From the sequence record PZ019086.1: a stretch of DNA of 64,000 bases; one strand, written 5' to 3'. The notes under the pieces are model-generated. The model was given only the letters and a program-made list of their open reading frames with translations. It was not told the DNA's origin and ran no database searches. Position numbers and translations under genes: made by a program. Position 1 is the stretch's first letter. Every line of letters begins with the position of its first letter. Shown piece by piece: positions 1,921-48,888 of the stretch. The DNA comes from a phage.

Positions 1921-2775
1921 TCACAATGAAGAAAATTCTTTAACTAAAGCCTGTAATGAAGCCTCTATTGGATATCCATTCTTAACTAACATTTTCCTAA
2001 ACATCACATGTTTAGGACGATTATATGATATCCACAATTCATACAATTTATCTTTATTATCCCAATGATAGCCTTTTCGTCGAGATGCTATATGAGCTTT
2101 TCTAATCTCCGGATTTTTCCAACTAGCGGCTACTGAATTTGATATAGCTATTTTATATTCAGGTTTTGATAAAGCAACACGAACAGCCTTTTGGTGTTTA
2201 ATTTTATTTTCTTCGTTATTAAACCATTCCCTTGAAGCCATTGAAATTTTTTGTTTTGTTTTAAAATTATTTAATCTTTCTTTGTTATCTTTCCTATTTT
2301 TTGCTACTGAAAAGTATTTTAATGCTCTTTCTCTAGCAGCATTTCTATTTTGTGGATTTGAATAATATTGTTGAAGCCTTTTTGATATTGTGTCACTTAC
2401 ATCTTGTTTTATAAAACTATATTCAGCAGCTATTAAATCAACTTCGGCTAAAGATAAATTTTTATATGTTTTTCCTGACATCATTCTATTTAAAGCATTT
2501 AGCATTTTTCCATTTTTACCTTTTGCTAATAAGAAATGTGCTTTAAAATGATTAAAATGACTTAAATTAACTAAATTCCATGTAGATTTTAAATATTCAG
2601 GAAATATTGATTTAGGAAGCACATGGTGTGCTTCCGTTTTACCTGGAGTTTTAACAGTTGAATTCATAGAAATAAAATTAATGTAAGACTTGGCGTCTTC
2701 TTCACTCAACGCTAATTTTTCAACTAATTCCTTTATTAAAAATTCATCATTAATGTCAAGTTTAAAATTCTTCAC
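1921..2775 (-). mobile_element. Freestanding HNH homing endonuclease (Mob-like) with C-terminal NUMOD-like repeats
   Basis: 284 aa; motif EAHHVLPKS...NLVNLSHFNHFKAH typical of HNH Mob proteins; basic repeated C-terminal segments; lies between genes 46 and 47. Confidence 0.55.
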
Positions 2776-21558: not shown

Positions 21559-22569
21559 TCATTTATAATAACTTCGATGGTTTTCAAGATAGACCTTCTC
21601 AAGGAAGTCATCCCAGAAACTCATGTCTACTTTTTGCTGCATACCGTTCTTAGAAGCTTCAGTAGATGCTGCTTCTACTTGATCGACCACATCTTCCAAA
21701 AACTCTTGAACAATTTTAAATGGATGTTTACCCAACTTCACGTCGAGAATAAATGGAGCGTCTTGAAGTGGATAGACTAAGTCACCAGTTTTGTAAATTT
21801 CCAATAGTTGAAGTCCACCACGACAAGCATGGCTCAGAGCTTTCCAGTCAATACCTTCGTTGGCTTCGGCCTTACGGGCACGTTCACCATATTCAGCATC
21901 TAATTTGTTCAGTGACTGCTTAAGCTCAATAAGAGAAAGCGTTGTCTGATATTTACGACCCAACACAGTGTAAAACGTTTGTGGACCTGTTTTCTCATGA
22001 TTATGGAACACCCATTCACAGAATTCGTTTTCTGGAAGACGATGCTTAATATCTTCAACTTTAGTACGACGCTGCTTAATGGAACCGTCTTCTTGGTAAT
22101 CAACCCATTGCTCAGGGATTTGATTAACTACTTTCAATACATCGCGTAATGCAGCCAAACGAGAACCCTTGACACCGTATTTAGAAGCTTGCTTGCGGAC
22201 ATATCCTAAATAGGATTTCATGTTAGTCGTATAAAAACGAGAACGATTGTCTTGAATAAACTTCCATACATCAGGCAAATCAGATTTAACCACTAGCTCG
22301 GGTGGAGTGTGGAGCATATCCAATGCTACAGTTTCACCATCTGCTGCTAATTTAAAGAAATACTTAAGACTGTATAGTTCATGGTCAATATCATCTTTAG
22401 TGTTTTTAGATGATGTGTTGTTAGTGTTTTTACTCATATGCTCTTTAACATTTCCGATAAGAATATCGCGAGCAGGAGGAACAAAGATTTCTTTAAAATC
22501 TACATCAGATTCTGGAGTAGAAGTTCCATAAAGATGACTACCAAAATAAGACTTAACTACAGTTTTCAT
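21559..22569 (-). CDS. Putative nucleotidyltransferase-fold protein (minimal Pol-beta-like NTase motif at the N-terminus)
   Basis: 336 aa; N-terminal FGSHLYGTSTPESDVDF fits the GS-x(9-13)-DxD nucleotidyltransferase signature. Confidence 0.35.
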   Translation of the reverse strand: MKTVVKSYFGSHLYGTSTPESDVDFKEIFVPPARDILIGNVKEHMSKNTNNTSSKNTKDDIDHELYSLKYFFKLAADGETVALDMLHTPPELVVKSDLPDVWKFIQDNRSRFYTTNMKSYLGYVRKQASKYGVKGSRLAALRDVLKVVNQIPEQWVDYQEDGSIKQRRTKVEDIKHRLPENEFCEWVFHNHEKTGPQTFYTVLGRKYQTTLSLIELKQSLNKLDAEYGERARKAEANEGIDWKALSHACRGGLQLLEIYKTGDLVYPLQDAPFILDVKLGKHPFKIVQEFLEDVVDQVEAASTEASKNGMQQKVDMSFWDDFLEKVYLENHRSYYK

Positions 22570-23030
22570 TATTTATCCTTATATTCAATAACAGGACATA
22601 CTTTAGCTTTACTCGCTTTTAAAAATTCGACGATAATAGATTTCTTGGGTTGAATAGGAGGTAAACCTTTATACGCCCTATCAATATTTTCTACATGTAA
22701 AGCATAATCCTTTTTCCATTTATAATCTTTATATTTTTCACGCAGTTGTACAGGAATAACAAATGAACCAATAATAAGTAAAACAAGCAAAATGACAAGT
22801 ACAAATGCTGATGGAATAAGAGTCCATAAACTACCAAAAATAAGCCATTTCTGTATGATTTCTGCACAGATGATAGTTAGACCTGCGAGTACAGTACATC
22901 CGAAAAAAGAAACGAAAAATGTAGGGATAACAATAGACCAAAAGTATGCACATAGTGTCTTAGGTCGTTTCCATTCATCATTAAACATTTTGAATAATTT
23001 ATAATGCCAAGAGTTTTCATTAATAATCAT
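22569..23030 (-). CDS. Membrane protein
   Basis: 153 aa; two long hydrophobic segments. Confidence 0.55.
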   Translation of the reverse strand: MIINENSWHYKLFKMFNDEWKRPKTLCAYFWSIVIPTFFVSFFGCTVLAGLTIICAEIIQKWLIFGSLWTLIPSAFVLVILLVLLIIGSFVIPVQLREKYKDYKWKKDYALHVENIDRAYKGLPPIQPKKSIIVEFLKASKAKVCPVIEYKDK

Positions 23031-23032
23031 AA

Positions 23033-23554
23033 TTATCCTTTCATTGAAGGTGTAACAGTTGTTAAATACTTAATCATAGCTTCAGCTTCTGATTTTGATA
23101 ATGAAATTTCTCCATTGTTTTGACGAATAGAAATAAAATCCGGATGACGGTCACCACCAGCTTTTAAAACACACATGTAAGTATCAACTTCGCCTTCAAT
23201 ATTTGAAATGATTGAAGCAGTTCCACATGAATGTGGTTGTTGATAAACTAATACAGCTTTTCTTCCACCGTTTGACTGTTCATAAACTTTTAACACATCA
23301 AACAAATCACTTCTTTTATCAATAGCTAAGATGTTGTTTTCATCTTCAATGTTAAATCCTTCGGATATTTCATAAAGTGTCACCCATAAATCGCCAATAT
23401 CAATGACAGCATTCACCTTTCCATGATTTTCAAGAGCATTACAAATTTTCTTAATTTCATCATAACTCATTTTAATAATATCATCTCCTTGAATAAAGAA
23501 GATGTCATTTTTAAATTCAACGCGAATTAAACCACTTTCACTTGAAATAAACAT
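23033..23554 (-). CDS. Hypothetical protein (paralog of the next ORF)
   Basis: 173 aa; shares GFNIE and C-terminal YLTTVTPSMKG with the neighbour's YLDSVIPTMISK. Confidence 0.55.
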   Translation of the reverse strand: MFISSESGLIRVEFKNDIFFIQGDDIIKMSYDEIKKICNALENHGKVNAVIDIGDLWVTLYEISEGFNIEDENNILAIDKRSDLFDVLKVYEQSNGGRKAVLVYQQPHSCGTASIISNIEGEVDTYMCVLKAGGDRHPDFISIRQNNGEISLSKSEAEAMIKYLTTVTPSMKG

Positions 23555-23560
23555 ATTTCC

Positions 23561-24112
23561 TCACTTTGAAATCATAGTTGGAATGACAGAATCAAGATAA
23601 GTCTTTAATAAAACAGCTTCTTCTTTGTTTAATACAACAACATTAACATCATTTACCGATTGACGAATAGTTAAGACATCTCCCTCTTCATAGCATTTTG
23701 ATACATTTAAAACAGTTTCATAATTTTGATTACAAGCGTTAGTAATAATAGCATTGCAATTTTTAAACCATTTTAAACCATGTTTTCTTTCATTAGAATA
23801 ATAGAAATATTTAATCTTAGCTATAAAATTATCCCAATTATTAATTGATAAGCATATTGACTCGCTTTCAATATTAAATCCTGGGCATAAAGAATAAAAA
23901 TGAATTTTATGCTCATCATTAATGCTTACAATTTTATCAGTGTATGGTTTTTCAATTTGGGTTAAATGAATAATTTCGCTAGGCGTAAAATATAGCATAT
24001 CGTCTTCTTGCGTCAAACGATACATATTATTTACTTTTTCTATAGCCAATTCACCAAAAAGTGAACTAACTTCTAGTACTAATCGTTTCATATTAATCCT
24101 TTTTATTGGCAT
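23561..24112 (-). CDS. Hypothetical protein (paralog of the previous ORF)
   Basis: 183 aa; shared motifs as above. Confidence 0.55.
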   Translation of the reverse strand: MPIKRINMKRLVLEVSSLFGELAIEKVNNMYRLTQEDDMLYFTPSEIIHLTQIEKPYTDKIVSINDEHKIHFYSLCPGFNIESESICLSINNWDNFIAKIKYFYYSNERKHGLKWFKNCNAIITNACNQNYETVLNVSKCYEEGDVLTIRQSVNDVNVVVLNKEEAVLLKTYLDSVIPTMISK

Positions 24113-24371
24113 GAATTTGTTCTAAAATTTTAGAGTATTCCTTTGTATCAGATTTACGTACAATCGATACACTATAAGGCATACTATCGGTGTCTTTTAT
24201 AAAGCGTTCCAAATGACACTCTAACAAAATTTCTGGGTTATAAATCGTGTACATCAAATTACCTGTTGCTCCACGATATTGACAGATTTCTACTGATTGA
24301 GCATCATTCCACAATTTTGTTAAGACTAAATCGCCTACTTCTAATTTAGGAAAGCTCATGTTATTCACCAA
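24093..24371 (-). CDS. Hypothetical protein
   Basis: 92-aa ORF. Confidence 0.45.
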   Translation of the reverse strand: MVNNMSFPKLEVGDLVLTKLWNDAQSVEICQYRGATGNLMYTIYNPEILLECHLERFIKDTDSMPYSVSIVRKSDTKEYSKILEQIHANKKD

Positions 24372-26246: not shown

Positions 26247-26459
26247 TCATTTTTGTCCTGTATTTACTTTATGCCGATGCACGGCCTTAACTTTATCAAG
26301 GTATTTTTCAAAATTTCGCAATCTAGTATAGTCTGCCGGAGATTGGTTGAGTGATACTTCTCGACGCAAAGCTGAAATGATATTTCCAACTTCCCTACGA
26401 ATTTCATCTAATTGAAGAACAGTAAGATTGCGAAGTTGCTTTTCAGTTAATTGTAGCAT
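26247..26459 (-). CDS. Hypothetical small protein
   Basis: 70-aa ORF. Confidence 0.45.
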
Positions 26460-26501
26460 ATATACCCCTTTAGTTAGATAAACCTATTTATAACTTTTGC
26501 A

Positions 26502-27083
26502 CTAACCGAGCTTTTTAGTTAATTCATTCCAATGTTTTCTACACAAAGAAACATAAATTTCATCACCAATACAGATTTGATTACCTTCTTTAACTGGTGT
26601 TCCATCTTCCATTAATCGAGCTGTCATAATAGCTTTTTTACCACAATGACAAACTGCTTTTAGTTCAATAAGTTTATCTGCAATCGCCAAAAGTTCTTTA
26701 GAACCTTCAAATAATTTTCCAGCGAAATCAGTCCTTAGCCCATAAGCCATAACAGGAACATTATATGTATCAACAATTCGGCTTAATTGATGCACCTGTT
26801 CAGTTTTTAAAAACTGGGCTTCATCTACAAATACACAATGAATATCTTTTTGTGCTTCAGCCCATTTATAGAACTCAAAAATATCCATATCATCCGTAAT
26901 AATATTCGCTTCCTGCTTAATTCCAATGCGAGAAACGACTTCACAGACAGAATCACGAGTATCAATAGCAGGCTTAAGAACTAATACGCCCATTCCGCGT
27001 TCTTTATAATTATGTGCAGCAGTCAAAAGAGAAGCAGATTTTCCAGCATTCATTGCTGCATAAGTAAAAATTAAACTCGCCAT
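26502..27083 (-). CDS. tk: Thymidine kinase
   Basis: 193 aa; P-loop AAMNAGKS; C-terminal Zn-binding cysteines; typical TK fold motifs. Confidence 0.9.
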   Translation of the reverse strand: MASLIFTYAAMNAGKSASLLTAAHNYKERGMGVLVLKPAIDTRDSVCEVVSRIGIKQEANIITDDMDIFEFYKWAEAQKDIHCVFVDEAQFLKTEQVHQLSRIVDTYNVPVMAYGLRTDFAGKLFEGSKELLAIADKLIELKAVCHCGKKAIMTARLMEDGTPVKEGNQICIGDEIYVSLCRKHWNELTKKLG

Positions 27084-27092
27084 ATCACCTTC

Positions 27093-27278
27093 TTAAAGCG
27101 TATTCACATAAGCTATTAATTCGTTTTCTTTCTTATCAAACCGGTCAGCAAATTCTTCCTGTTGTTCGGGAGATAGCGGGCCATATTCATCATAAAAGGT
27201 GTTTGCTTCTGTATGCTCATCTAGAAGTTCATGGATAAGCTCAAACAATTTATCTTTTTGTTCTTTACTCAGACTCAT
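27093..27278 (-). CDS. Hypothetical small acidic protein
   Basis: 61-aa ORF. Confidence 0.45.
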   Translation of the reverse strand: MSLSKEQKDKLFELIHELLDEHTEANTFYDEYGPLSPEQQEEFADRFDKKENELIAYVNTL

Positions 27279-27444
27279 ATATTAATTTCCAGAAGTTTTA
27301 AAATAATTCGCTTTTGCTTAAATATTTCCATAGTTAAATGATCAGTATCTTTTTGACCAATTCCGATGGCAAAACCTTTATTAACAGCGAGTTCAATTAA
27401 ATTATCAAGCTCGCGTAACACCTCATATTGTAACTCAGAACTAT

Positions 27445-27672
27445 TCATTTTGGTTTACCTTCTTTAACAAAATCGGGATAAGGATAAAATCCTGAATAAA
27501 ATCCTTCACCTTTATGATTAATGCATCCTTTATTAGAGCAATAGCACCAATAATCGAAATCACAAGCCATTTCATCATTGCATAAAGCAAAAACAACTGG
27601 CCATTTACACTTTTCACAATGTGCATTTTTAAGAATGCTAGTTTGGCTCATAACCATGTAACCTTTAAGCAA
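27445..27672 (-). CDS. Cysteine-rich small protein (probable Zn-binding)
   Basis: 75 aa with about 10 Cys (CEKCKWPVVFALCNDEMACDFDYWCYCSNKGC). Confidence 0.45.
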   Translation of the reverse strand: MLKGYMVMSQTSILKNAHCEKCKWPVVFALCNDEMACDFDYWCYCSNKGCINHKGEGFYSGFYPYPDFVKEGKPK

Positions 27673-27860
27673 TATTCTTCTACATGCTGTTTACGACCTT
27701 TCTTATCAATAAAGGTATATTCAACGAATGTTCCAATATAGTCTTTATCTACATCATGTGGACTATTAATTGGGCATTTAGTACGGCAAATGCGTTCCCA
27801 TTGACGAATAATTTCTGCTTTGTTTTTAGGATCAAACGGATGCGGGTAATGTACTTTCAT
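27648..27860 (-). CDS. Hypothetical small protein
   Basis: 70-aa ORF. Confidence 0.45.
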   Translation of the reverse strand: MKVHYPHPFDPKNKAEIIRQWERICRTKCPINSPHDVDKDYIGTFVEYTFIDKKGRKQHVEEYCLKVTWL

Positions 27861-28311
27861 AATCCACCACTATTAAATCAATATCAGGAGTAAACATGTC
27901 GATTAATTTAGAAACCTTATCCCAATCACCGCCAGCAATACCACAACCTATGCGTGGAATGTAAATTACTGGTTTAAACAAAAGGGTCTCTGCCTGTAGA
28001 TTTAATTCTATCATGCAGTTTACTAAAGCACCATAATCAAGATTAGGACCCGGTTCGTATTGCGTATACAGGTTATAGCATATACCAAATCCTGTAGGAT
28101 TATGTTTAAAAACAATAGACATATCGCCTAATTTATCACGAGAACCGTACTCAGTAGTGGTTTTATCTATTTCTAAAATTTTGGGATAGGCTCTTGCTAA
28201 TTGACCTGCTACGCCAGAGCCCATTGTGTGAAAACAGTTGCACCCGTGCGCAATAATATTACCTTGAAGAAATAGGGCGACAATATCGCCCTTGATATAT
28301 TTTACAATCAT
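27832..28311 (-). CDS. Macro-domain protein (ADP-ribose binding/processing fold)
   Basis: 159 aa; GDIVALFLQGNIIAHGCNCFHTMGSGVAGQLARAYP resembles the macro-domain core motif. Confidence 0.55.
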   Translation of the reverse strand: MIVKYIKGDIVALFLQGNIIAHGCNCFHTMGSGVAGQLARAYPKILEIDKTTTEYGSRDKLGDMSIVFKHNPTGFGICYNLYTQYEPGPNLDYGALVNCMIELNLQAETLLFKPVIYIPRIGCGIAGGDWDKVSKLIDMFTPDIDLIVVDYESTLPASV

Positions 28312-28655
28312 CTAGTACTCAATCCTCGATTATAAGAATCTACCAAACGGTCAACCATTGAATGACAAGCGGCTTTATCTTTCTCCTCCGCAACTGAACA
28401 TTCTAAGGTATTCCACTTTTTAGCATATCGTTTTAATAATGTATCGTTTTTGTATCTGCTTGATTTATCTCTTTCTCCGTCTTTATATGCATATATTAAT
28501 TTCTGCGCAAATTCAGCTTGGCATGCTTTATTTTTCCCACAATAATCCGCGGCAGTACGGTTTACATATTCTCTAATTTCAGTATATGATGTATCTGCTG
28601 ACGCAGAAGCAGAAAATGAAATTAATCCTACACATAAAACCAAAATTTTAGTCAT
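28308..28655 (-). CDS. Secreted/periplasmic small protein with signal peptide (size and position correspond to T4 vs)
   Basis: 115 aa; N-terminus MTKILVLCVGLISFSASASA. Confidence 0.4.
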   Translation of the reverse strand: MTKILVLCVGLISFSASASADTSYTEIREYVNRTAADYCGKNKACQAEFAQKLIYAYKDGERDKSSRYKNDTLLKRYAKKWNTLECSVAEEKDKAACHSMVDRLVDSYNRGLSTR

Positions 28656-29193
28656 TTACTATTTCCAACAGTTTATTATTTTTAAGGTAGTTAGCCTTTT
28701 CTAGGACTTCAGAAGCATATTTAGAACCTGCTTTAACATTCCATCCCGAATTATAAGAGGATATTGCTTTTCTTATATCGCCCTTATGTATATTTAACCA
28801 ATAAGAAAGTTCAATGTATGCCCAGGAAGCTGAATTGGACCGTTTATTCAACATTCTTTTTATTTCAGCATCAGTCATATTATAACCAAGTTCCTTAACT
28901 CTTGCTCGCATGGTTGGCAAATAATTTTGGAACATTCCGTAGGCGTGATGCTTTGGTTTAGATTTTAAATTAACTCCGGCAGAGCTTTCTTGCCATAAAA
29001 TAGCAGCCATTATATGACCCAATCCGCTCTTGTGGATATTTTTGTGTGTTTTATATTTTCCATCCTTAGAAAATTGTTCCCCGAATTGATATGCGTAGCG
29101 CATGTTATCGAGTTGGACATTACTGAAAGTATGCTCGGAGCTATGTGCCATCATTGAAATGGCCAATAGACCAGCGAGTAGTGCTTTTCTCAT
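28648..29193 (-). CDS. Periplasmic lytic-transglycosylase-like protein (SLT-domain motif) with signal peptide
   Basis: 181 aa; signal peptide; ILWQESSAGVN...AYGMFQ resembles the SLT catalytic region. Confidence 0.5.
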   Translation of the reverse strand: MRKALLAGLLAISMMAHSSEHTFSNVQLDNMRYAYQFGEQFSKDGKYKTHKNIHKSGLGHIMAAILWQESSAGVNLKSKPKHHAYGMFQNYLPTMRARVKELGYNMTDAEIKRMLNKRSNSASWAYIELSYWLNIHKGDIRKAISSYNSGWNVKAGSKYASEVLEKANYLKNNKLLEIVND

Positions 29194-29200
29194 GCTTACC

Positions 29201-29662
29201 TCATTGAGTTTTAATTACTGCTTTAGAAGCCTTTCCTGGTAAACGACGACTGTTGATAATTGCCATCCTGCACTGAAGTGACGGGTCTTTGAACTTCGCA
29301 TTAGGTTTACAAACTGTAAATCCAAGCCAAAGATTTCCATCTGTGATTTCTAAACGTCCAGGACGGTATTCAACTCCATCAATAAAATCCTCGTCAATGT
29401 CAGGACGCGGAGGCATACTCAGGAATTCATTAACTTCTAAAACATGGTCTTTTATTTTATGGAATAATTCAAAAACATATGTCTCATCAATCTCCCGTTG
29501 AATTGCGCGATCAAGAAGATGTTGAGAATATTTTAGATGAAACGATGAGACCCCTGCTGCTTTTGATGCCTCACGAATCTCATTGTTAATTTGACGAAAC
29601 TCCGACTCAAAGTGACGACGGAGCTTATTTCGACGGATAAAAACTTCTGTGTTGATAGTCAT
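29201..29662 (-). CDS. regB: Endoribonuclease RegB
   Basis: 153 aa; MTINTEVFIRRNKLRRHFESEF... matches my recollection of T4 RegB; position matches. Confidence 0.8.
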   Translation of the reverse strand: MTINTEVFIRRNKLRRHFESEFRQINNEIREASKAAGVSSFHLKYSQHLLDRAIQREIDETYVFELFHKIKDHVLEVNEFLSMPPRPDIDEDFIDGVEYRPGRLEITDGNLWLGFTVCKPNAKFKDPSLQCRMAIINSRRLPGKASKAVIKTQ

Positions 29663-29721
29663 GTTATTCTCCTCTTAACTGATAGAAAAATTATACCACA
29701 GTCAAGAGGAAAAGTAAACAG

Positions 29722-30042
29722 TTATTCTTTAAATCTAATCAATTTATTCATAGACTTTGTAACTTCTGCACGAACCTCATGTAGGTTTTTAAGCTGTTCA
29801 AGACGCTGCTCATAGTAAGCAATTTCATCTTCTTCGAGACAGTCCTGCGAATCTTCTTTAAGATAACGTGCATAGTCCTGGAAAGCTTTACGGACTACTT
29901 CCCGGAAGTCATCAAGACTTTGAATTTTCTTAGGAGCAACAGATACACGACGAGGGGCAGTATAATACTCATAACCAAACCCTGCGCTTAATTGAGCCAT
30001 TAATATTTTTCCTCTGGTTGGAACACAGCACGACAAGCCCAC
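29722..30042 (-). CDS. Hypothetical protein
   Basis: 106-aa ORF. Confidence 0.5.
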
Positions 30043-30302
30043 ATACTGGCTTCTTTGAGTTTCGTTTTAGCAATAGTTAACTGATCAAGACTTTCAGCAT
30101 AATTCTTCGCGAATTCACAGTCTTCACAATTATCTAGTGCTTCCCAGAATTCATCGTATAAAGCGTCAAAGATAAGTCCTAAACGAACTTCAGCGTCTTT
30201 GATAGCATTCACTTTACCGATTTTCTCTTCAGTATGTGGTTTATAACCCTTAATATCTTCAATCATATTTGACTTCCTCGCCAGTACCCAAATCATATTC
30301 AA
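30000..30302 (-). CDS. Small helical protein at the map position of T4 vs.4 (Acb2, cyclic-oligonucleotide sponge); true start probably an internal Met
   Basis: Position three genes downstream of regB; size about 90-100 aa; identity by synteny only. Confidence 0.35.
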
Positions 30303-30480
30303 CTAAACGAATAGGTTCATGAATGCCATATCCCTGAACAGAAATTTCTGTCGTAGGATAAATTCCATCAATATCACCCATATTCCAGGCTTCATTAAAT
30401 TGCTGTTCGCCTGAATTACTAAACCACTCGGCGAAAGCATTTAGCACATCTTCAGAACCTTCAATAATTATCTTTGCCAT
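30259..30480 (-). CDS. Hypothetical small acidic protein
   Basis: 73-aa ORF. Confidence 0.45.
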   Translation of the reverse strand: MAKIIIEGSEDVLNAFAEWFSNSGEQQFNEAWNMGDIDGIYPTTEISVQGYGIHEPIRLVEYDLGTGEEVKYD

Positions 30481-30842
30481 TACAAACTTTCAGTAAAGGT
30501 ACGAGCGATAACGTCGCGCTGCTGTTCCGGAGTCAGAGAGTTAAAGCGAACTGCATAACCGGATACACGGATGGTCAGCTGCGGATATTTTTCCGGATGC
30601 TTAACTGCATCTTCCAGAGTTTCACGACGCAGAACGTTAACGTTCAGGTGTTGACCACCTTCAATTTTAACTGTAGGTTGTGTTTCAATTTCAATTTCGC
30701 GGGCATGCAAACCGTAGAAAATTTCCGGGTCTACAAAAGAGTCCTCTTTAAAGGTTTTAGAAACGATAATTCGTGCTTGAATACCATCTTCAAAATAAAT
30801 AGTACCTTTATGTGTGCCTTCAAGAATTTGATATGCTTTCAT
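30480..30842 (-). CDS. Autonomous glycyl-radical cofactor protein (GrcA/YfiD-like)
   Basis: 120 aa; C-terminal half ...[59 protein letters not shown] with the RVSGY glycyl-radical motif; locally GC-rich DNA. Confidence 0.8.
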
Positions 30843-30849
30843 ATAAACC

Positions 30850-31227
30850 TCAATTAGAAAATAAATTTATCCAGGATTGTTCTTTAATTAAAAACGGCTC
30901 AGAATCATATGCCATTAAACTTTGGGTAATTAATCCTTTAAAAGGTCCATCAATAAATTCCATGGTAAAATATGGAATTTTATTCATTAGCCGTGCATTA
31001 GGAGCAGTGCACAAAACTCTGCATCCTTTGAATACACCTTTTTGTAATTTGTATTGCTTGGGATAAAATTCGCTTAAAATGTTATTATTTGCTAAAATTT
31101 CAAAATGATTCACCAATTTATTTTTAATAGTTTTTGGCGAAAAATAAAGATATTCGAAAAGCTGAGTGTCTGTCATCATTGCATTCCGATTACGAAAAAC
31201 TGTGGACGAGTAATACCACCAATGCAA
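30850..31227 (-). CDS. Hypothetical protein
   Basis: 125-aa ORF. Confidence 0.5.
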
Positions 31228-31763
31228 CAGTTAATATTACAGCAGTGGTGTACAGTGTCAATATGGACACTATAAATCTTATCCATATCAGGAGATTTGA
31301 CAGGCTCATCAATTATATATAAAATTCGCGAAAGCGATAAACCTCTGAACTTGCTTCCTTTATTACCAATAAAACTGCGCACAGAATCAGTAAATAAACG
31401 AAAACGTATATCATCATTAGAATAACGCGAAAATTCCTTTTTAATGTTATTTGCAGAAATTTTAGCGTAAGCTGAAGTATTAGAAAGAACAATAACTGTT
31501 CCGCCATCATATAACCAATTAGCAGCAAAGTTAGTCACAGCAATTGATTTACCGGATTGACGTCCACCATCTATACGAAGTGTGCAATACTGTTTAAGTA
31601 AGTCTTCAAATGGTGGGATATAATCGTTTTTACAAATTTCTTCTACTCTAGCATCAGAATGGTGTGTAAAAGCATTCATCAGGGATAGATAAGGACCAGT
31701 TAAAAATGTTCTCATTTTGTTCTCTCTAAGTTTGGGCCATTCCGTGGCGCATGAATTGTCCAT
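31176..31763 (-). CDS. Hypothetical protein with a P-loop-like motif
   Basis: 195 aa; GGRQSGKS; C-terminal Cys/His cluster HHCCNINCC. Confidence 0.45.
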   Translation of the reverse strand: MDNSCATEWPKLRENKMRTFLTGPYLSLMNAFTHHSDARVEEICKNDYIPPFEDLLKQYCTLRIDGGRQSGKSIAVTNFAANWLYDGGTVIVLSNTSAYAKISANNIKKEFSRYSNDDIRFRLFTDSVRSFIGNKGSKFRGLSLSRILYIIDEPVKSPDMDKIYSVHIDTVHHCCNINCCIGGITRPQFFVIGMQ

Positions 31764-31892
31764 TTCTGTATTTACCCATTACCGCACTTGGGCTCGACCT
31801 TATTACAGGTTGGCGGGAATCCCTCACAGAATCATGAGGTCCAGCTTGTTCCCATTTTATTTGAATGTAAATAGGCCTATACTTAGGCCTTA

Positions 31893-32471
31893 TTAATTAC
31901 CACGGGCCGCATTAGCAACGGCGTAAGCATACTGAACATTAGCGTCTTTAAATGTACCTTTAGAGGTATCTATTTCTGCCTTAAAGCCGCCTTTAGCCAT
32001 AACATCGGCGAATTCTTTACGGAAAGCCATTGCATCGAGACCTTTCCATGATGATTTATGCTTGGCAAATTCAAGACCTGCGAAGTTGACAGCTTTAGCC
32101 AATTTATTATCAATGACCCATTTACCGGCTTTAGGCACAAACTTCGGGCCTTTTTGTTTAGAGAACAGTTTTAAATTCCAGCGACGAAGATCACTGTCGG
32201 CTTTAACAAAAGCTGCGTCTAAGTTACTAGCAACAACATCTTCAATATGAGCAAATTTAAGTCCGTCAACTTCAATATTTAAATCGGTACGCCAGCGAAG
32301 TCCTTCCCAAGCGAAAGCTTTAAAATCGGAAGCTTTTGTAGCTAAGTATCGTTCAATAGGGGCTGTTTTAGGGTCAAAGCCGTTTCCACCACGATAGTTC
32401 CACTCGTCCTTATTAATGCCTTTGGCCTTTACTACAGAAGCTTCAGCAATAAATTCTTGATACGTTTTCAT
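31893..32471 (-). CDS. ipIII: Internal protein III-like (head-packaged, injected protein) with capsid-targeting leader
   Basis: 192 aa; N-terminus MKTYQEFIAEA (capsid-targeting sequence cleaved by the prohead protease). Confidence 0.75.
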   Translation of the reverse strand: MKTYQEFIAEASVVKAKGINKDEWNYRGGNGFDPKTAPIERYLATKASDFKAFAWEGLRWRTDLNIEVDGLKFAHIEDVVASNLDAAFVKADSDLRRWNLKLFSKQKGPKFVPKAGKWVIDNKLAKAVNFAGLEFAKHKSSWKGLDAMAFRKEFADVMAKGGFKAEIDTSKGTFKDANVQYAYAVANAARGN

Positions 32472-32497
32472 TTTTGTTCCTATTGTTTTAATTCATG

Positions 32498-32812
32498 TTA
32501 TTCTTTAGGGAAGTTTTTAGAGTATGCGTCATAAAGTTTATTACCAATACGACGGAAGACTCTAGCTGCAAAACGGTTTTCAGGGTTTTTAATCATGATT
32601 TGCATCATGTAAGTTCCTGCATCCGAAAGAGCTTCTTCATAGTACCCATTAATTTCTTTAAGAGTCCTACGTTTACCACCAGGACCATCAACAGTAATTT
32701 TCCATTTACCTGTAGAAGTGCGGCTCGGTGGCTCAACTTGTTCAATCCAAATATAACCACCTTCAACGCGTTGGTTGGCGGATTCTGCAATAAATTCTTT
32801 ATATGTTTTCAT
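32498..32812 (-). CDS. ipII: Internal protein II-like with capsid-targeting leader
   Basis: 104 aa; N-terminus MKTYKEFIAES. Confidence 0.7.
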   Translation of the reverse strand: MKTYKEFIAESANQRVEGGYIWIEQVEPPSRTSTGKWKITVDGPGGKRRTLKEINGYYEEALSDAGTYMMQIMIKNPENRFAARVFRRIGNKLYDAYSKNFPKE

Positions 32813-32834
32813 TTTTGTTTCCTTATTTGTTTTG

Positions 32835-32880
32835 ATAGAGTAATTATACCATATTAATACTTAAGCGTAAACTGTTTAAG
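32835..32880 (-). promoter_or_regulatory. Early promoter (minus strand GTTTACG ... TATAAT)
   Basis: Plus strand gagtaattataccat...cgtaaac. Confidence 0.4.
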
Positions 32881-33136
32881 CTTTACCGCCAGAAATAATT
32901 CCGAAGGTGTTAAAATCATATCCAATATCGTCAACATCTACTTTAGGGCTTGCTACAACGTAAGCAATTTCACTACGTTTTGCATAGGTGTTTATTTCTC
33001 TACCATCGCCGCCTAGGAAAGAATACCCATTACGTTTTAATGAGCCAAAATCTTCGGCATCACCAACGAAAGCTTTAACTTTAAATTTGGGGCCTTTGAC
33101 ATCTGCTTCAGCGATAAATTCTTGATACATTTTCAT
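32876..33136 (-). CDS. Additional internal-protein-like ORF with capsid-targeting leader
   Basis: Starts MKMYQEFIAEA after a GGAGGA Shine-Dalgarno; about 87 aa. Confidence 0.6.
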   Translation of the reverse strand: MKMYQEFIAEADVKGPKFKVKAFVGDAEDFGSLKRNGYSFLGGDGREINTYAKRSEIAYVVASPKVDVDDIGYDFNTFGIISGGKA

Positions 33137-33154
33137 TTTTCCTCCAAGTAGTTG

Positions 33155-33200
33155 ATGAATGTATAGTATCAAAGTCCTTGGAGGAAGTAAACACTATTTT
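33155..33200 (-). promoter_or_regulatory. T4-type early promoter
   Basis: gttgatgaatgtatagtatca...agtaaac. Confidence 0.45.
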
Positions 33201-33475
33201 TCTGAAGCGCCTGAAATATATTTTTCAAGACGTTGTTTCATTAGCGAGCCGTTCTTAGCGATTTCTTCCGGTTTATCGCACATACGCAACAAGGCTTCAA
33301 GCTTAACGATATCGCTGGTACGTTCAAATTTGCGAGTATCTATCTTACTAGCAAGTTCAGAAATACGTGCTAATAGACTTTCAGCTTCAACCAAAGCTGC
33401 ACCTAGCTTAGTTGCAAATGTGTCGGTAGCTTCGTTAAGAATAGATTCCGATAAAAATTCACTATATGTTTTCAT
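33194..33475 (-). CDS. Additional internal-protein-like ORF with variant capsid-targeting leader
   Basis: 93 aa; N-terminus MKTYSEFLSES. Confidence 0.55.
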   Translation of the reverse strand: MKTYSEFLSESILNEATDTFATKLGAALVEAESLLARISELASKIDTRKFERTSDIVKLEALLRMCDKPEEIAKNGSLMKQRLEKYISGASEK

Positions 33476-33485
33476 ATATACGCTT

Positions 33486-34010
<525 letters not shown>

Positions 34011-34466
34011 TTAAAAGAGGTTGTTCATTATTCGGTAAAGTGAAGGACCCATCACATATTGCCACTGAGTACGAGGAATAAGAGCAAAAGCGTCCATCTC
34101 TGGAATCATAACACCATCTTTATTTTCAAAATAAGACTCGCAATGGCAATTTCTAAACATCTCATGCTCTACTGGAATCGTATAATAAAACAGCTGTAAG
34201 TCTTTATTACTAGAATATTTAAATACACCTAGGTCTTCTAGAAGGTCTGGATTATAATTGCTAAAACCAGTCTCTTCTAAACATTCTCTTCGTGCTGCAT
34301 CTAGTGCGCTTAAATCAGAACTTTCTACACGCCCCTTTGGAATATCCCAGCGATGTGCCATCATTCCAGGCTTACGAGAACCAGTAACTCGTCCCATAAA
34401 TAAATCTTTATCTTCTGTCATAAAGATAATACCAGCTGATAGTGTTTTCATTTTAATTTCCTGCAT
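34011..34466 (-). CDS. nudE: Nudix hydrolase
   Basis: 151 aa; Nudix box GRVESSDLSALDAARRECLEETG. Confidence 0.8.
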   Translation of the reverse strand: MQEIKMKTLSAGIIFMTEDKDLFMGRVTGSRKPGMMAHRWDIPKGRVESSDLSALDAARRECLEETGFSNYNPDLLEDLGVFKYSSNKDLQLFYYTIPVEHEMFRNCHCESYFENKDGVMIPEMDAFALIPRTQWQYVMGPSLYRIMNNLF

Positions 34467-41085: not shown

Positions 41086-41779
<694 letters not shown>

Positions 41780-45094: not shown

Positions 45095-46850
45095 TAACCT
45101 TAATTGGTTTGTTGGTGTTGTTGAAGATAGAATGGACCCATTAAAATTAGGTCGCGTTCGTGTTCGTGTTGTTGGTCTGCATCCACCACAAAGAGCACAA
45201 GGTGATGTAATGGGTATTCCAACTGAAAAATTACCATGGATGTCAGTTATTCAACCTATAACTTCTGCAGCAATGTCTGGAATTGGAGGCTCCGTTACTG
45301 GTCCGGTAGAAGGAACTAGAGTTTATGGTCATTTTTTAGACAAATGGAAAACTAACGGAATTGTTCTTGGCACGTATGGTGGAATAGTTCGCGAAAAGCC
45401 TAATAGGCTTGAAGGATTTTCTGACCCAACTGGACAGTATCCTAGACGTCTAGGAAATGATACTAACGTATTAAACCAAGGCGGAGAAGTAGGATATGAT
45501 TCGTCTTCTAATATTATCCAAGATAGCAATCTAGACACTGCGATAAATCCCGATGATAGACCACTATCAGAAATTCCAACTGATGATAATCCAAATATGT
45601 CAATGGCTGAAATGCTTCGCCGTGATGAAGGATTAAGACTAAAAGTTTATTGGGATACTGAAGGATATCCGACAATTGGTATTGGTCATCTTATCATGAA
45701 GCAGCCAGTTCGTGATATGACTCAAATTAATAAAGTTTTATCAAAACAAGTTGGTCGTGAAATTACCGGAAATCCAGGTTCTATTACAATGGAAGAGGCG
45801 ACAGCTTTATTTGAACGCGATTTGGCTGATATGCAACGTGACATTAAATCACATTCTAAAGTTGGCCCAGTTTGGCAGGCAGTTAATCGTTCTCGTCAAA
45901 TGGCATTAGAAAACATGGCATTTCAGATGGGTGTTGGTGGTGTAGCTAAATTTAACACAATGTTAACTGCTATGTTAGCAGGAGATTGGGAAAAAGCATA
46001 TAAAGCTGGTCGTGATTCATTGTGGTATCAACAAACAAAAGGCCGTGCATCCCGTGTTACCATGATTATTCTTACGGGAAATTTGGAATCATATGGTGTT
46101 GAAGTGAAAACACCGGCTAGGTCTTTGTCAGCAATGGCTGCTGCTGTAGCGAAGTCTTCTGATCCAGCTGACCCTCCTATTCCTAATGATTCGAGAATTT
46201 TATTTAAAGAACCTGTTTCTTCATATAAAGGTGAATATCCATATGTTCACACAATGGAAACTGAAAGCGGTCATATTCAGGAATTTGATGATACCCCTGG
46301 GCAAGAACGATACAGATTAGTTCATCCGACTGGAACATATGAGGAAGTATCACCGTCAGGAAGAAGAACAAGAAAAACTGTCGATAATTTGTATGATATA
46401 ACAAATGCTGATGGTAATTTTTTGGTAGCCGGTGATAAAAAGACTAACGTCGGTGGATCAGAAATTTATTACAACATGGATAATCGTCTTCACCAAATAG
46501 ATGGAAGCAATACAATATTTGTGCGTGGCGACGAAACGAAAACTGTTGAAGGTAATGGAACTATCCTAGTTAAAGGTAATGTTAAAGTAGTTATTCAAGG
46601 AACAGCAGATATAACTGTTGAACAGGAAGCATACATAACTGTTGAAAAAGACACGACTGTTAATGTTAACCAAAACGCAGACATAAGTGTTAAAAATAAA
46701 GCAACTGTTAATGCTGAAAATATGGATGTCAACGTTGAGCAAGATTTAAATTTTTCAGCGACAAATATTAATTTAAGTGCATCTAATACTGTTCATATGG
46801 ATGGCGGGGTTCTTTCTAAAGTATCAGGTGGAAACGTACAGGTTGGTTAA
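45078..46850 (+). CDS. 5: Baseplate hub subunit with tail lysozyme domain gp5
   Basis: 590 aa; OB-fold N-terminus; central lysozyme domain MAEMLRRDEGLRLKVYWDTEGYPTIGIGHLI; C-terminal beta-helix repeats. Confidence 0.9.
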   Translation: MEMISNNLNWFVGVVEDRMDPLKLGRVRVRVVGLHPPQRAQGDVMGIPTEKLPWMSVIQPITSAAMSGIGGSVTGPVEGTRVYGHFLDKWKTNGIVLGTYGGIVREKPNRLEGFSDPTGQYPRRLGNDTNVLNQGGEVGYDSSSNIIQDSNLDTAINPDDRPLSEIPTDDNPNMSMAEMLRRDEGLRLKVYWDTEGYPTIGIGHLIMKQPVRDMTQINKVLSKQVGREITGNPGSITMEEATALFERDLADMQRDIKSHSKVGPVWQAVNRSRQMALENMAFQMGVGGVAKFNTMLTAMLAGDWEKAYKAGRDSLWYQQTKGRASRVTMIILTGNLESYGVEVKTPARSLSAMAAAVAKSSDPADPPIPNDSRILFKEPVSSYKGEYPYVHTMETESGHIQEFDDTPGQERYRLVHPTGTYEEVSPSGRRTRKTVDNLYDITNADGNFLVAGDKKTNVGGSEIYYNMDNRLHQIDGSNTIFVRGDETKTVEGNGTILVKGNVKVVIQGTADITVEQEAYITVEKDTTVNVNQNADISVKNKATVNAENMDVNVEQDLNFSATNINLSASNTVHMDGGVLSKVSGGNVQVG

Positions 46851-46851
46851 T

Positions 46852-48888
46852 ATGAATTATAACGAAATTGTTGATGAATTAGTTGATACCATACAATCAG
46901 CTTGTTCAATTATTCCCGAAGGTTATTATAGACGAGTTAAATGGGAATTATACAATCCCAATAAAGAAATGATTCAACCCGATAATGGGGTTGAATGGGA
47001 CACTGAAATTATTAAATTAGATACCCATCTTTACACCGAAAATCCATTTGGTCATTCTTCTGATACATTTACTGAATCATCTGATGGAGAAACCCAAACT
47101 GGTGTTTTTTGTCATAAAATCGGCGTGTATTTTCCAACTCAAACTGCGTTAGAAGATTACGTTGAACAAATTGGTGCAACTTTACTTCCAGGTAATACTT
47201 GGTATGGTGCTGATTTATCGAAACGTGAATTTTTTAAAACTGAAATTGAATATGATATGTATCGCATTGAAAATCGCGGAGGTACATGGCATCATACGGG
47301 TCCTAGAATAGATGCTAGGACAATGATCGGTGTTAACAATGACTATACAATGTATGTTAACTTTAACGGTTTAGGAGATTATCGAAGAGCATATTTAAAA
47401 TATTATGAAGATAAACCATGCACATATGTCGGTTTAACACTAAATTTAAATATAGATACATCAATTCCCGGTATTCCTTATTCACCTCCATCAATTATTG
47501 GAGAGCTTCCACTTAATGCAATTTCATGCGTTAATTTTACTGCCCAATTTCCATACAATGGCTTAACAACTGCAATTATTGAGGCTTGGAACACCTCAAG
47601 AGATTCATTTAAACTATATTGGGATATGTTGCCTGGTATGCCGGCAATTAGCGGAAGTGATTTTGAAAAATATTTTAATTCGGCATATACACATTTATCT
47701 GTAGCAATGGAAGAGCTTGGAAATTCGGCAATTGCCATGTGTCAATATGTTCAGCAACAAGCCTTTATGGTTTTTAAAAATTCTGTTTCACAAGTTCTAA
47801 ATATTGTCGGTGGCGGATGGGATTTATTAAAAAGTTTTTTACCTAAAATAACAATAATGGGCATATCTATTGATATTGAAGATTTATGTACATCAACAGA
47901 TGGTGTTCAAAAATTGAAGGAAACCTTTGAAAATTTTAATCTGGAAGATACTATTAGTTCAATTTATTCTGCAATGGGTTCTGCATATGACTATTCTATA
48001 GAACGCGTTAAAATGTATTCGCGGGATTTAATTGATGCAATAACAGATTTATATGATTGGGCCTGGTCAAAATTAATGATGGCCGGTGTCGCTTTATCAA
48101 AATTATGTGTTGATTTAGCACAAATCTGGAGCATGCCACCAATTATTCCAAATCCAGTGTGGTCTGTTATCACTTTAGTGAAGGAAATGATGAAACAAAT
48201 TCCTCCATTAGATATGATTATGTCAGGTAATTTTCCTGGATTTACTGCTTCTGATGTATATCAGATGGTTATGTCTATCGTATCTGAAAAAATTAAACAA
48301 GTTTATACTGAAATAGAATCATTAAAAACCCAAGCATTGGATGTATGGAATGAAATTAAACTAAAAACACAGGAATATAAAAAGCAAACGATTGAATTTA
48401 AACAATATTTATCAGGAATGGCTGAAAAGGTTGAAGATGAAATAACTATAGCAAAAAAGAAAGCGTTACAAGAAGCTGAATCCGCTTTAAATGTTTTAAA
48501 GGATAAATATAACAGTATTAAAGACTTGATAAAAAATAAACAGATTTCTGTGTCTGATGTATTAGATTTAGCTTTGACTGAATTTCGAAAAATTCCATTA
48601 ATTTCACAAATGGAATCATTATTATCTTTAGCTGGAGCATCTATCGATGATATAATGAAAGTATATGAAAATAGCGTTACTAAAGCAAAATCATTATATC
48701 ACGAATTCACCGATGGCGCTCGGTCAATGAAAGATCTATGCAAATCATTATACAATCAAATTTCGACTTTATGTTTGAGTAAGGTTGTGCAATGGATTAA
48801 TAAAATGCTTGGAATATTTGGATTAAGTATTACATTTCCAACAGTATCAATATGCATTCCATGCTTAAAAACTCCTATGAGGAATTAA
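46852..48888 (+). CDS. Large uncharacterised protein encoded between gene 5 and gene 6; N-terminal Trp/Tyr-rich region, C-terminal helical/coiled-coil half, hydrophobic C-terminal tail
   Basis: Uninterrupted 2.0-kb ORF in AT-rich DNA; ATG one base after the gene 5 stop (TAAtATG); its stop sits 1 nt before the gene 6 ATG. Confidence 0.7.
   Translation: MNYNEIVDELVDTIQSACSIIPEGYYRRVKWELYNPNKEMIQPDNGVEWDTEIIKLDTHLYTENPFGHSSDTFTESSDGETQTGVFCHKIGVYFPTQTALEDYVEQIGATLLPGNTWYGADLSKREFFKTEIEYDMYRIENRGGTWHHTGPRIDARTMIGVNNDYTMYVNFNGLGDYRRAYLKYYEDKPCTYVGLTLNLNIDTSIPGIPYSPPSIIGELPLNAISCVNFTAQFPYNGLTTAIIEAWNTSRDSFKLYWDMLPGMPAISGSDFEKYFNSAYTHLSVAMEELGNSAIAMCQYVQQQAFMVFKNSVSQVLNIVGGGWDLLKSFLPKITIMGISIDIEDLCTSTDGVQKLKETFENFNLEDTISSIYSAMGSAYDYSIERVKMYSRDLIDAITDLYDWAWSKLMMAGVALSKLCVDLAQIWSMPPIIPNPVWSVITLVKEMMKQIPPLDMIMSGNFPGFTASDVYQMVMSIVSEKIKQVYTEIESLKTQALDVWNEIKLKTQEYKKQTIEFKQYLSGMAEKVEDEITIAKKKALQEAESALNVLKDKYNSIKDLIKNKQISVSDVLDLALTEFRKIPLISQMESLLSLAGASIDDIMKVYENSVTKAKSLYHEFTDGARSMKDLCKSLYNQISTLCLSKVVQWINKMLGIFGLSITFPTVSICIPCLKTPMRN

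Follow-up and report, generated by a model that had tools for sequence, protein, structure and literature searches.

The subject of this analysis is a macrodomain gene, tk.4 (also named adfM), in a stretch of phage DNA of 64,000 nucleotides (nt) from sequence record PZ019086.1, which as a whole we call the window. The window comes from a T4-like (Tequatrovirus) genome: it is collinear throughout with approximately 33.3–96.2 kb of T4, and the 20-kb stretch around tk.4 is about 95% identical to several Tequatroviruses of Escherichia and Shigella. An earlier note, made from the bare sequence, had proposed a macro-domain protein at this place, and this has been confirmed, with exactly one open reading frame (ORF) filling the interval (Table 1) and its product exceeding the threshold of the Pfam Macro model, belonging to PHROG 335 and adopting the expected fold in a predicted structure. 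The motif peptide quoted in that note is residues 8–43 of this ORF, and its macro likeness is no chance pattern. The description of the gene as lying next to tk is true only roughly, since 749 nt and four small ORFs lie between them.

T4 carries tk.4 between vs and tk.3; there the gene encodes a protein of 155 amino acids (aa) annotated as 'contains A1pp phosphatase motif'. The window ORF sits in the same slot, and its 159-aa product is similar to T4 Tk.4 along the full length (58% identity, E = 1e-70). By megablast, the ORF matched 561 phage records, the best of them at 98–99% identity, several of which label the gene tk.4, 'phosphatase', or 'macro domain-containing protein'. The gene starts within an ATGA junction with the stop codon of vs, which is common to T4, and its ATG is preceded, at a distance of 11 nt, by a GAGGA, an arrangement suggestive of translational coupling between vs and tk.4. 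At the other end, it overlaps the start of tk.3 by 29 nt because a 13-nt deletion relative to T4 moves the stop codon; the overlap encodes a disordered C-terminal tail that is longer than in T4 Tk.4. There is no darT gene beside tk.4. Around it lie vs, vs.1, and tk.3 together with small phage ORFs, and each of these neighbors either shares about 96–100% identity with T4 or falls into a PHROG/Pfam family whose function is unknown. A promoter scan of positions 26300–31500 yielded 19 sites against 20.3 expected and is therefore uninformative on the timing of expression.

Fold, class, and active site

The Pfam Macro model (PF01661) matched the tk.4 product with 33.1 bits (E = 5.8e-8; gathering threshold 22 bits) across its positions 2–117 of 118, and PHROG 335 did so with E = 1.6e-71. 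A single-sequence search of the PDB retrieved BT1257, Poa1p, SCO6735, Mycobacterium tuberculosis DarG, and TARG1, and a profile built from 58 homologues improved the PDB matches to E-values between 2e-19 and 5e-10. The earlier note had named the want of a macro fold in a structure prediction as the result that would speak against it; the AlphaFold2 model derived from the 58-sequence alignment displays the three-layer α/β/α macro fold, with a mean predicted local distance difference test score (pLDDT) of 94.3 and a predicted template modeling score of 0.89, and disorder is confined to its last few residues (pLDDT below 50 at residues 157–159). In a Foldseek search against the PDB, TARG1, BT1257, Poa1p, the Thermus aquaticus and M. 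tuberculosis DarGs, and SCO6735 were each matched with probability 1.00. Ranked by score, the neighbors among solved structures are BT1257 (18.4), M. tuberculosis DarG (17.7), Poa1p (17.3), TARG1 (16.8), and a Thermosipho DarTG (16.6), with a coronavirus macrodomain coming next (13.8). The nearest relatives in both sequence and structure therefore belong to the ALC1-like class (TARG1/DarG/SCO6735/Poa1p) and not to the MacroD, PARG, or viral Mac1 macrodomains, and the tk.4 product is a stand-alone ALC1-like macrodomain with no extra domain.

Across the 58 homologues, H22, G23, N25, C26, G33, A35, D49, N80, Y82, Q84, P119, G122, G124, and W130 are invariant, and C24 is conserved in at least 90%. 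Within the N-terminal patch of this active site, N25 pairs with N23 of PhiKZ AdfM, and H22 pairs with H23 of Poa1p and, by offset through BT1257 H23, with H24 of SCO6735. The conservation of N25 and of the Gly-rich loops (G31/G33 and G122/G124) would fit a protein that binds ADP-ribose. The position occupied by the catalytic Lys in TARG1 (K84) and DarG (K80) is taken by Q84: in the TARG1 profile alignment, 'YtQ' stands opposite 'iTK', so that Q84 equals K84, in the BT1257 profile alignment it equals Q82, and the MAFFT columns agree in both cases. In SCO6735, it is Gln85 that structurally takes the place of TARG1 K84 and DarG K80, and both Q85A and Q85E abolish activity (PMC9411070). The C-terminal phosphate-binding loop PRIGCGIAGGDW nearly matches PRIGCGLAGGKW of BT1257 and PRIGCGLAGGTW of SCO6735 (compare PRIGCGLAGG(K/T)W), and the TARG1 loop PRIGCGLDRLQW carries the catalytic D125, at the place of which the tk.4 product has A126. 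The trait of the SCO6735/BT1257 subclass, viz., Gln for the catalytic Lys and Ala/Gly for TARG1 Asp125, is thus present. Because Q84 aligns with BT1257 Q82, A126 replaces D125, and the loop is near-identical, the product is, as judged from these alignments, of the Gln type seen in SCO6735 and BT1257 and not of the Lys type seen in DarG.

Table 1. Features of the tk.4 locus, in window coordinates.
Feature	Position	Strand	Basis or remark
tk.4 / adfM coding sequence	27832..28311	-	exactly one ORF, 159 codons and stop
ATGA junction, overlap of vs stop and tk.4 start	28308..28311	-	sequence; common to T4
Overlap of tk.4 3' end and tk.3 start, 29 nt	27832..27860	-	T4 alignment and ORF coordinates
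H22-G23-C24-N25-C26, N-terminal active-site patch	28234..28248	-	conserved columns
Q84 codon, in the column of the catalytic Lys (TARG1 K84, DarG K80)	28060..28062	-	alignments
P119-W130, PRIGCGIAGGDW, Gly-rich phosphate-binding loop	27922..27957	-	near-identical to BT1257/SCO6735
Divergent tk.4 core, about 44–80% nt identity to T4 (flanks 92–100%)	27864..28270	-	50-nt windows and pairwise alignment

A predicted anti-DarT2 role and its alternatives

The macro annotation of tk.4 is two decades old, an A1pp (macro) match having been reported in 2006 for its orthologues in T4-like phages (PMC1524935). A function was attached to it in a preprint of November 2025: in T4 transposon libraries on a DarTG2 host, tk.4 was the sole significant depleted gene, and a clean T4 tk.4 knockout made the phage DarTG2-sensitive; the gene was renamed adfM, for anti-DarT factor Macrodomain, and its product was noted to be structurally like the macrodomain of M. 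tuberculosis DarG (bioRxiv 10.1101/2025.11.20.689424). With respect to the class, SCO6735, TARG1, and DarG strip thymidine-linked ADP-ribose from DNA, and SCO6735 hydrolyzes the thymidine adduct (dT-ADPr) and not the guanine adduct (dG-ADPr), rescues Escherichia coli from DarT, and has been proposed to use a water-mediated mechanism (PMC9411070). The earlier note had suggested a reversal of DarT-type DNA ADP-ribosylation, and this is supported by the T4 genetics, by the synteny, and by the activity of the class members. The reading is not new for the T4 orthologue, for which it is already published. The result confirms that a real anti-defense gene can be recognized from bare sequence.

We consider it probable, at roughly 80%, that the window allele encodes an orphan antitoxin that hydrolyzes DarT2 adducts on single-stranded phage DNA and restores replication, probably via a Gln/water route of the SCO6735 type. 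Under this model, bacterial DarT2 would attach ADP-ribose to thymidines of single-stranded DNA of the infecting phage, and the thymidine adducts would block phage replication. The tk.4 product would bind the ADP-ribose adduct and hydrolyze the ribose–thymine bond, and the DNA so repaired would permit phage growth on DarTG2 hosts, by virtue of which the protein would act as an orphan antitoxin. The chemistry would follow SCO6735 and not DarG, Q84 being essential and holding both the substrate and a water molecule in position, with no catalytic Lys. The window gene shares with T4 tk.4 the vs/tk.3 slot, the ATGA junction, a single-domain size (159 versus 155 aa), and the invariant His, Asn, Gln, and Gly residues; by analogy with this orthologue and with the characterized members of the class, it is likely to have the same activity and the same target.

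Several observations weigh against this reading or its chemical component. For Tk.4, the preprint says only that enzymatic ADP-ribose removal 'seems likely' (bioRxiv 10.1101/2025.11.20.689424). The T4 Tk.4 that was tested shares only 58% identity with the window protein, whose phosphate loop is GCGIAGGDW versus GAGIGKGNW in T4 Tk.4. The catalytic Lys of DarG is absent, the invariant Gln84 standing in its column, and the equation of Q84 with SCO6735 Q85 runs through TARG1 and BT1257 as bridges and through the published structural equivalence, the alignment obtained with SCO6735 itself being for the C-terminal loop, not the Gln85 region. The SCO6735/BT1257 subclass is said to be marked by a mobile loop that exceeds those of TARG1 and DarG by about five residues (PMC9411070), and the tk.4 product lacks it: there is a gap of 5–6 residues relative to BT1257, which carries the extra residues, and the loop length in the phage family profile resembles TARG1. 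A counterpart of the DNA-positioning Lys34 of SCO6735 is lacking too, in that BT1257 K33 (SCO6735 K34 by offset) stands opposite S32, and the family consensus has Ala in this column. Finally, H22 and T29 align to H23 and S30 of the Poa1p active site.

This last match, along with the legacy 'phosphatase / A1pp' annotation, which implies a phosphatase, could be taken to indicate a Poa1p-like ADP-ribose-1''-phosphate (Appr-1''-p) phosphatase or another housekeeping enzyme of ADP-ribose metabolites with no anti-defense role. The similarity to Poa1p is, however, mainly N-terminal (strong over residues 3–79, with a weak stretch at 116–148), whereas the BT1257/SCO6735-type motifs fit the full length of the product. 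A phosphatase would also leave unexplained the T4 phenotype, which is specific to DarTG2, tk.4 being otherwise dispensable, and we know of no source of Appr-1''-p in T4 infection; we therefore give this explanation very little credence. It seems equally improbable that the protein is an eraser of protein ADP-ribosylation, be it of marks made by the phage Alt, ModA, and ModB or of host defense or toxin marks. T4-like phages do encode three ADP-ribosyltransferases, and TARG1 and SCO6735 also take Glu/Asp-linked ADP-ribose off proteins (PMC9411070). Yet Alt, ModA, and ModB are arginine-directed R-S-E enzymes of the cholera-toxin family (PMC8120803), and the removal of their marks is unlikely because this class is known to act on Glu/Asp- and thymidine-linked ADP-ribose, no ALC1-like macrodomain having been reported in the cited literature to cleave ADP-ribose from arginine. 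Control of the phage's own ADP-ribosyltransferases, which the earlier note had offered as a second possibility, finds no support for the same reason. Moreover, SCO6735 strongly prefers DNA over protein substrates (PMC9411070), the T4 phenotype is specific to DarTG2, and mod and alt lie away from the tk.4 locus, the window corresponding to 33–96 kb of T4.

Another idea is that DarT2 is neutralized mainly by binding of the toxin or its product, i.e., by stoichiometric inhibition or sequestration, and not by catalysis. This is conceivable because the dead mutants SCO6735 Q85A, DarG K80A, and TARG1 K84A still inhibit DarT in vitro, SCO6735 most strongly (PMC9411070), and Tk.4 does lack the classical catalytic Lys. 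We nevertheless hold it to be improbable: the ADP-ribose-binding and SCO6735-type catalytic residues, viz., H22, N25, Q84, and the Gly loop, are invariant, and such strict conservation of the catalytic site argues for catalysis, while the C-terminal DarT-binding domain of DarG is absent. A further alternative is a broader nucleic acid de-ADP-ribosylase, the main targets of which would be other defenses, for example, those based on RNA ADP-ribosylation, with DarTG2 as one of several. The spread of homologues over 2859 of 50,697 phage records, from many hosts and families, is wider than one defense system should select, and RNA-ADP-ribosylating systems, with macrodomain erasers for them, are on record. 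On the other side, SCO6735 acts specifically on dT-ADPr and leaves dG-ADPr untouched (PMC9411070), and T4 deals with DarT1 by a separate enzyme, AdfN (PMC11825919), which makes this alternative unlikely, too. Catalytic removal of DarT2 adducts from phage DNA thus remains our preferred reading of tk.4.

Relationship to other anti-DarT proteins

The known proteins to which the tk.4 product may be compared differ from it in distinct ways. SCO6735 and BT1257 are only 25–29% identical to it and are cellular, not phage, proteins; moreover, Lys34 of SCO6735 (Lys33 of BT1257) contacts DNA, whereas the phage family has Ser or Ala there. The DarG2 antitoxins of T. aquaticus and M. tuberculosis have the catalytic Lys80 where the tk.4 product has Gln. 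The C-terminal DarT-interacting domain of DarG was not found in the window protein, all 159 aa of which are macrodomain, matching positions 3–144 of the 329 in the PADLOC DarG model. Against this model, the window protein scores 27.7 bits, T4 Tk.4 scores 36, and PhiKZ gp104 scores 132.9.

PhiKZ gp104, which was independently named AdfM, removes DarT2-made ADP-ribose from DNA in vitro and works in vivo (PMC13309987, Cell Rep 2026), and its N23A mutant is less active (PMC13309987). Like the tk.4 product, it is a stand-alone phage macrodomain directed against DarTG2 with the conserved Asn, and hhalign relates the two with a probability of 95.6%. However, it is DarG-type, with an FPTK motif that includes the Lys, its BLASTP match to the window protein (E = 0.001) spans 33 residues only, and it is imported into the phage nucleus, a structure that T4-like phages do not have. 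In both hhalign and MAFFT, its Lys falls one column off Q84; we attribute this to register noise, the segment being one of low confidence, and take it as evidence neither way. As the T4-type AdfM is a Gln-type relative of SCO6735 and BT1257 rather than a copy of DarG, it and PhiKZ gp104 represent two distinct macrodomain lineages under one name, and the shared name could mislead the transfer of annotation. In the case of AdfN (T4 30.3), the parallel is one of role: it too is an orphan antitoxin-like hydrolase of T-even phages that strips ADP-ribose from DNA, but it has the NADAR fold, unrelated to that of macrodomains, acts on the guanine adducts of DarT1, and is encoded by a gene outside the window. 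It counters DarTG1 and not DarTG2 (PMC11825919). The T-even phages would have one orphan 'antitoxin' for each type of DarT, AdfN for guanine adducts and AdfM for thymine adducts. What makes tk.4 of interest beyond this is its lysine-free active site, the strongly diverged alleles within near-identical flanks, and the one name for two lineages.

Allele divergence and other variable loci

The nucleotide identity to T4, taken in 50-nt windows, is 92–100% in vs and 100% up to the tk.4 start codon, falls to 86% across the first 50 nt of tk.4 and to 44–52% in its middle and 3' part, and returns to 92–98% in tk.3. As far as can be told from such a profile, the simplest reading is that the window tk.4, which is of another allele class than that of T4, is an exchanged cassette, the allele having been replaced through recombination among T4-like phages, within their gene pool. 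Allele replacement is common in T4-like genomes and is compatible with selection on an anti-defense gene, though no proof of it. In a neighbor-joining tree (computed with no support values and hence suggestive only), the window allele and many others form a larger clade from which the T4-type alleles are excluded. More widely, tblastn of the phage collection found a homologue in 2859 of 50,697 records (~5.6%), and these fall into discrete classes of identity, with 313 at 90% or more, 7 at 80–90%, 107 at 60–80%, and 2432 below 60%; the hosts include Escherichia, Klebsiella, Salmonella, Pseudomonas, Vibrio, Acinetobacter, Aeromonas, and others. So frequent a presence among sequenced phage genomes suggests that phages widely face DNA ADP-ribosylation as a pressure.

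We advance, as a speculation with the odds clearly against it, that the tk.4/adfM locus carries discrete recombining allele classes that differ in the DarT2 variants countered or in the ADP-ribosyl-nucleic acid adducts reversed, all of them perhaps relying on Gln and water instead of lysine and on a mobile loop that is short. Such a combination is undescribed among the characterized macrodomains, and, were the idea true, the sharp edges of the cassette would be the mark of an arms race and not of neutral mosaicism.

A GC-rich hairpin (AGGGCGA-TATTG-TCGCCCT, 28274–28292, minus strand) sits where the identity to T4 starts to collapse. It corresponds to tk.4 codons 7–13, lies 20 nt beyond the stop codon of vs, and has a T-rich run after it; the hairpin is identical in T4, where TTTTCGC comes after it. 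It was considered as a terminator or attenuator and rejected: the terminator-like count is not above that of shuffled sequences, and the hairpin may be incidental because its folding z-scores are only −1.1 in the window and −1.4 in T4.

Immediately next to adfM, the tk/tk.3 interval forms a second patch of variation. Here, positions 27084–27647 hold small ORFs of 61 aa (DUF7438), 57 aa (PHROG 3452), and 75 aa (Pfam Phage_zn_bind); in T4, this interval is occupied by tk.1 and tk.2, and only 27102–27279 resembles T4 tk.2 (67% nt identity). On the other side of tk.4, vs.1 (28648–29193, minus strand), hypothetical in the T4 annotation, encodes 181 aa with a signal peptide-like N-terminus and barely exceeds the threshold of the Pfam SLT lytic transglycosylase model (23.4 versus 21.3 bits).

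Several further loci of the window depart from T4. In the region 31853–33491, T4 denV (endonuclease V) and ipII are missing, with no tblastn match in the whole window, and around ipIII lie instead three small ORFs (32498–32812, 32876–33172, and 33194–33475; PHROGs 3966, 2667, and 3499) with an N-terminus of the form 'MKTYxEF'. Such a start is typical of the internal head proteins of T4, and these ORFs look like a variable cassette of internal proteins that may serve against restriction. Between genes 5 and 6, where T4 carries 5.1, segC, 5.3, and the PAAR spike-tip gene 5.4, the window has a single 703-aa ORF (46777–48888, plus strand) of PHROG 5296, a family of unknown function. This ORF has no Pfam match and weak tape-measure-like matches only, and gp5.1, segC, and gp5.4 matched nothing in the window. 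The complement of homing endonucleases differs as well: mobB, mobC, and the I-TevII intron of nrdD are absent from the window, a 284-aa HNH homing endonuclease (PHROG 655; 1921–2775, minus strand) is inserted after gene 46, and mobD is replaced at 22569–24371 by a membrane-protein ORF, two paralogous ORFs of PHROG 1502, and a 92-aa ORF of unknown function. By comparison, nudE (34014–34466, minus strand; 98% identity to T4) and 57B/acb1, a gene against the cyclic oligonucleotide-based antiphage signaling system (CBASS; 41086–41541, minus strand; 99%), are nearly unchanged. As nudE is annotated in T4 as a Nudix hydrolase active on ADP-ribose, one may speculate that it could dispose of the ADP-ribose freed by AdfM.
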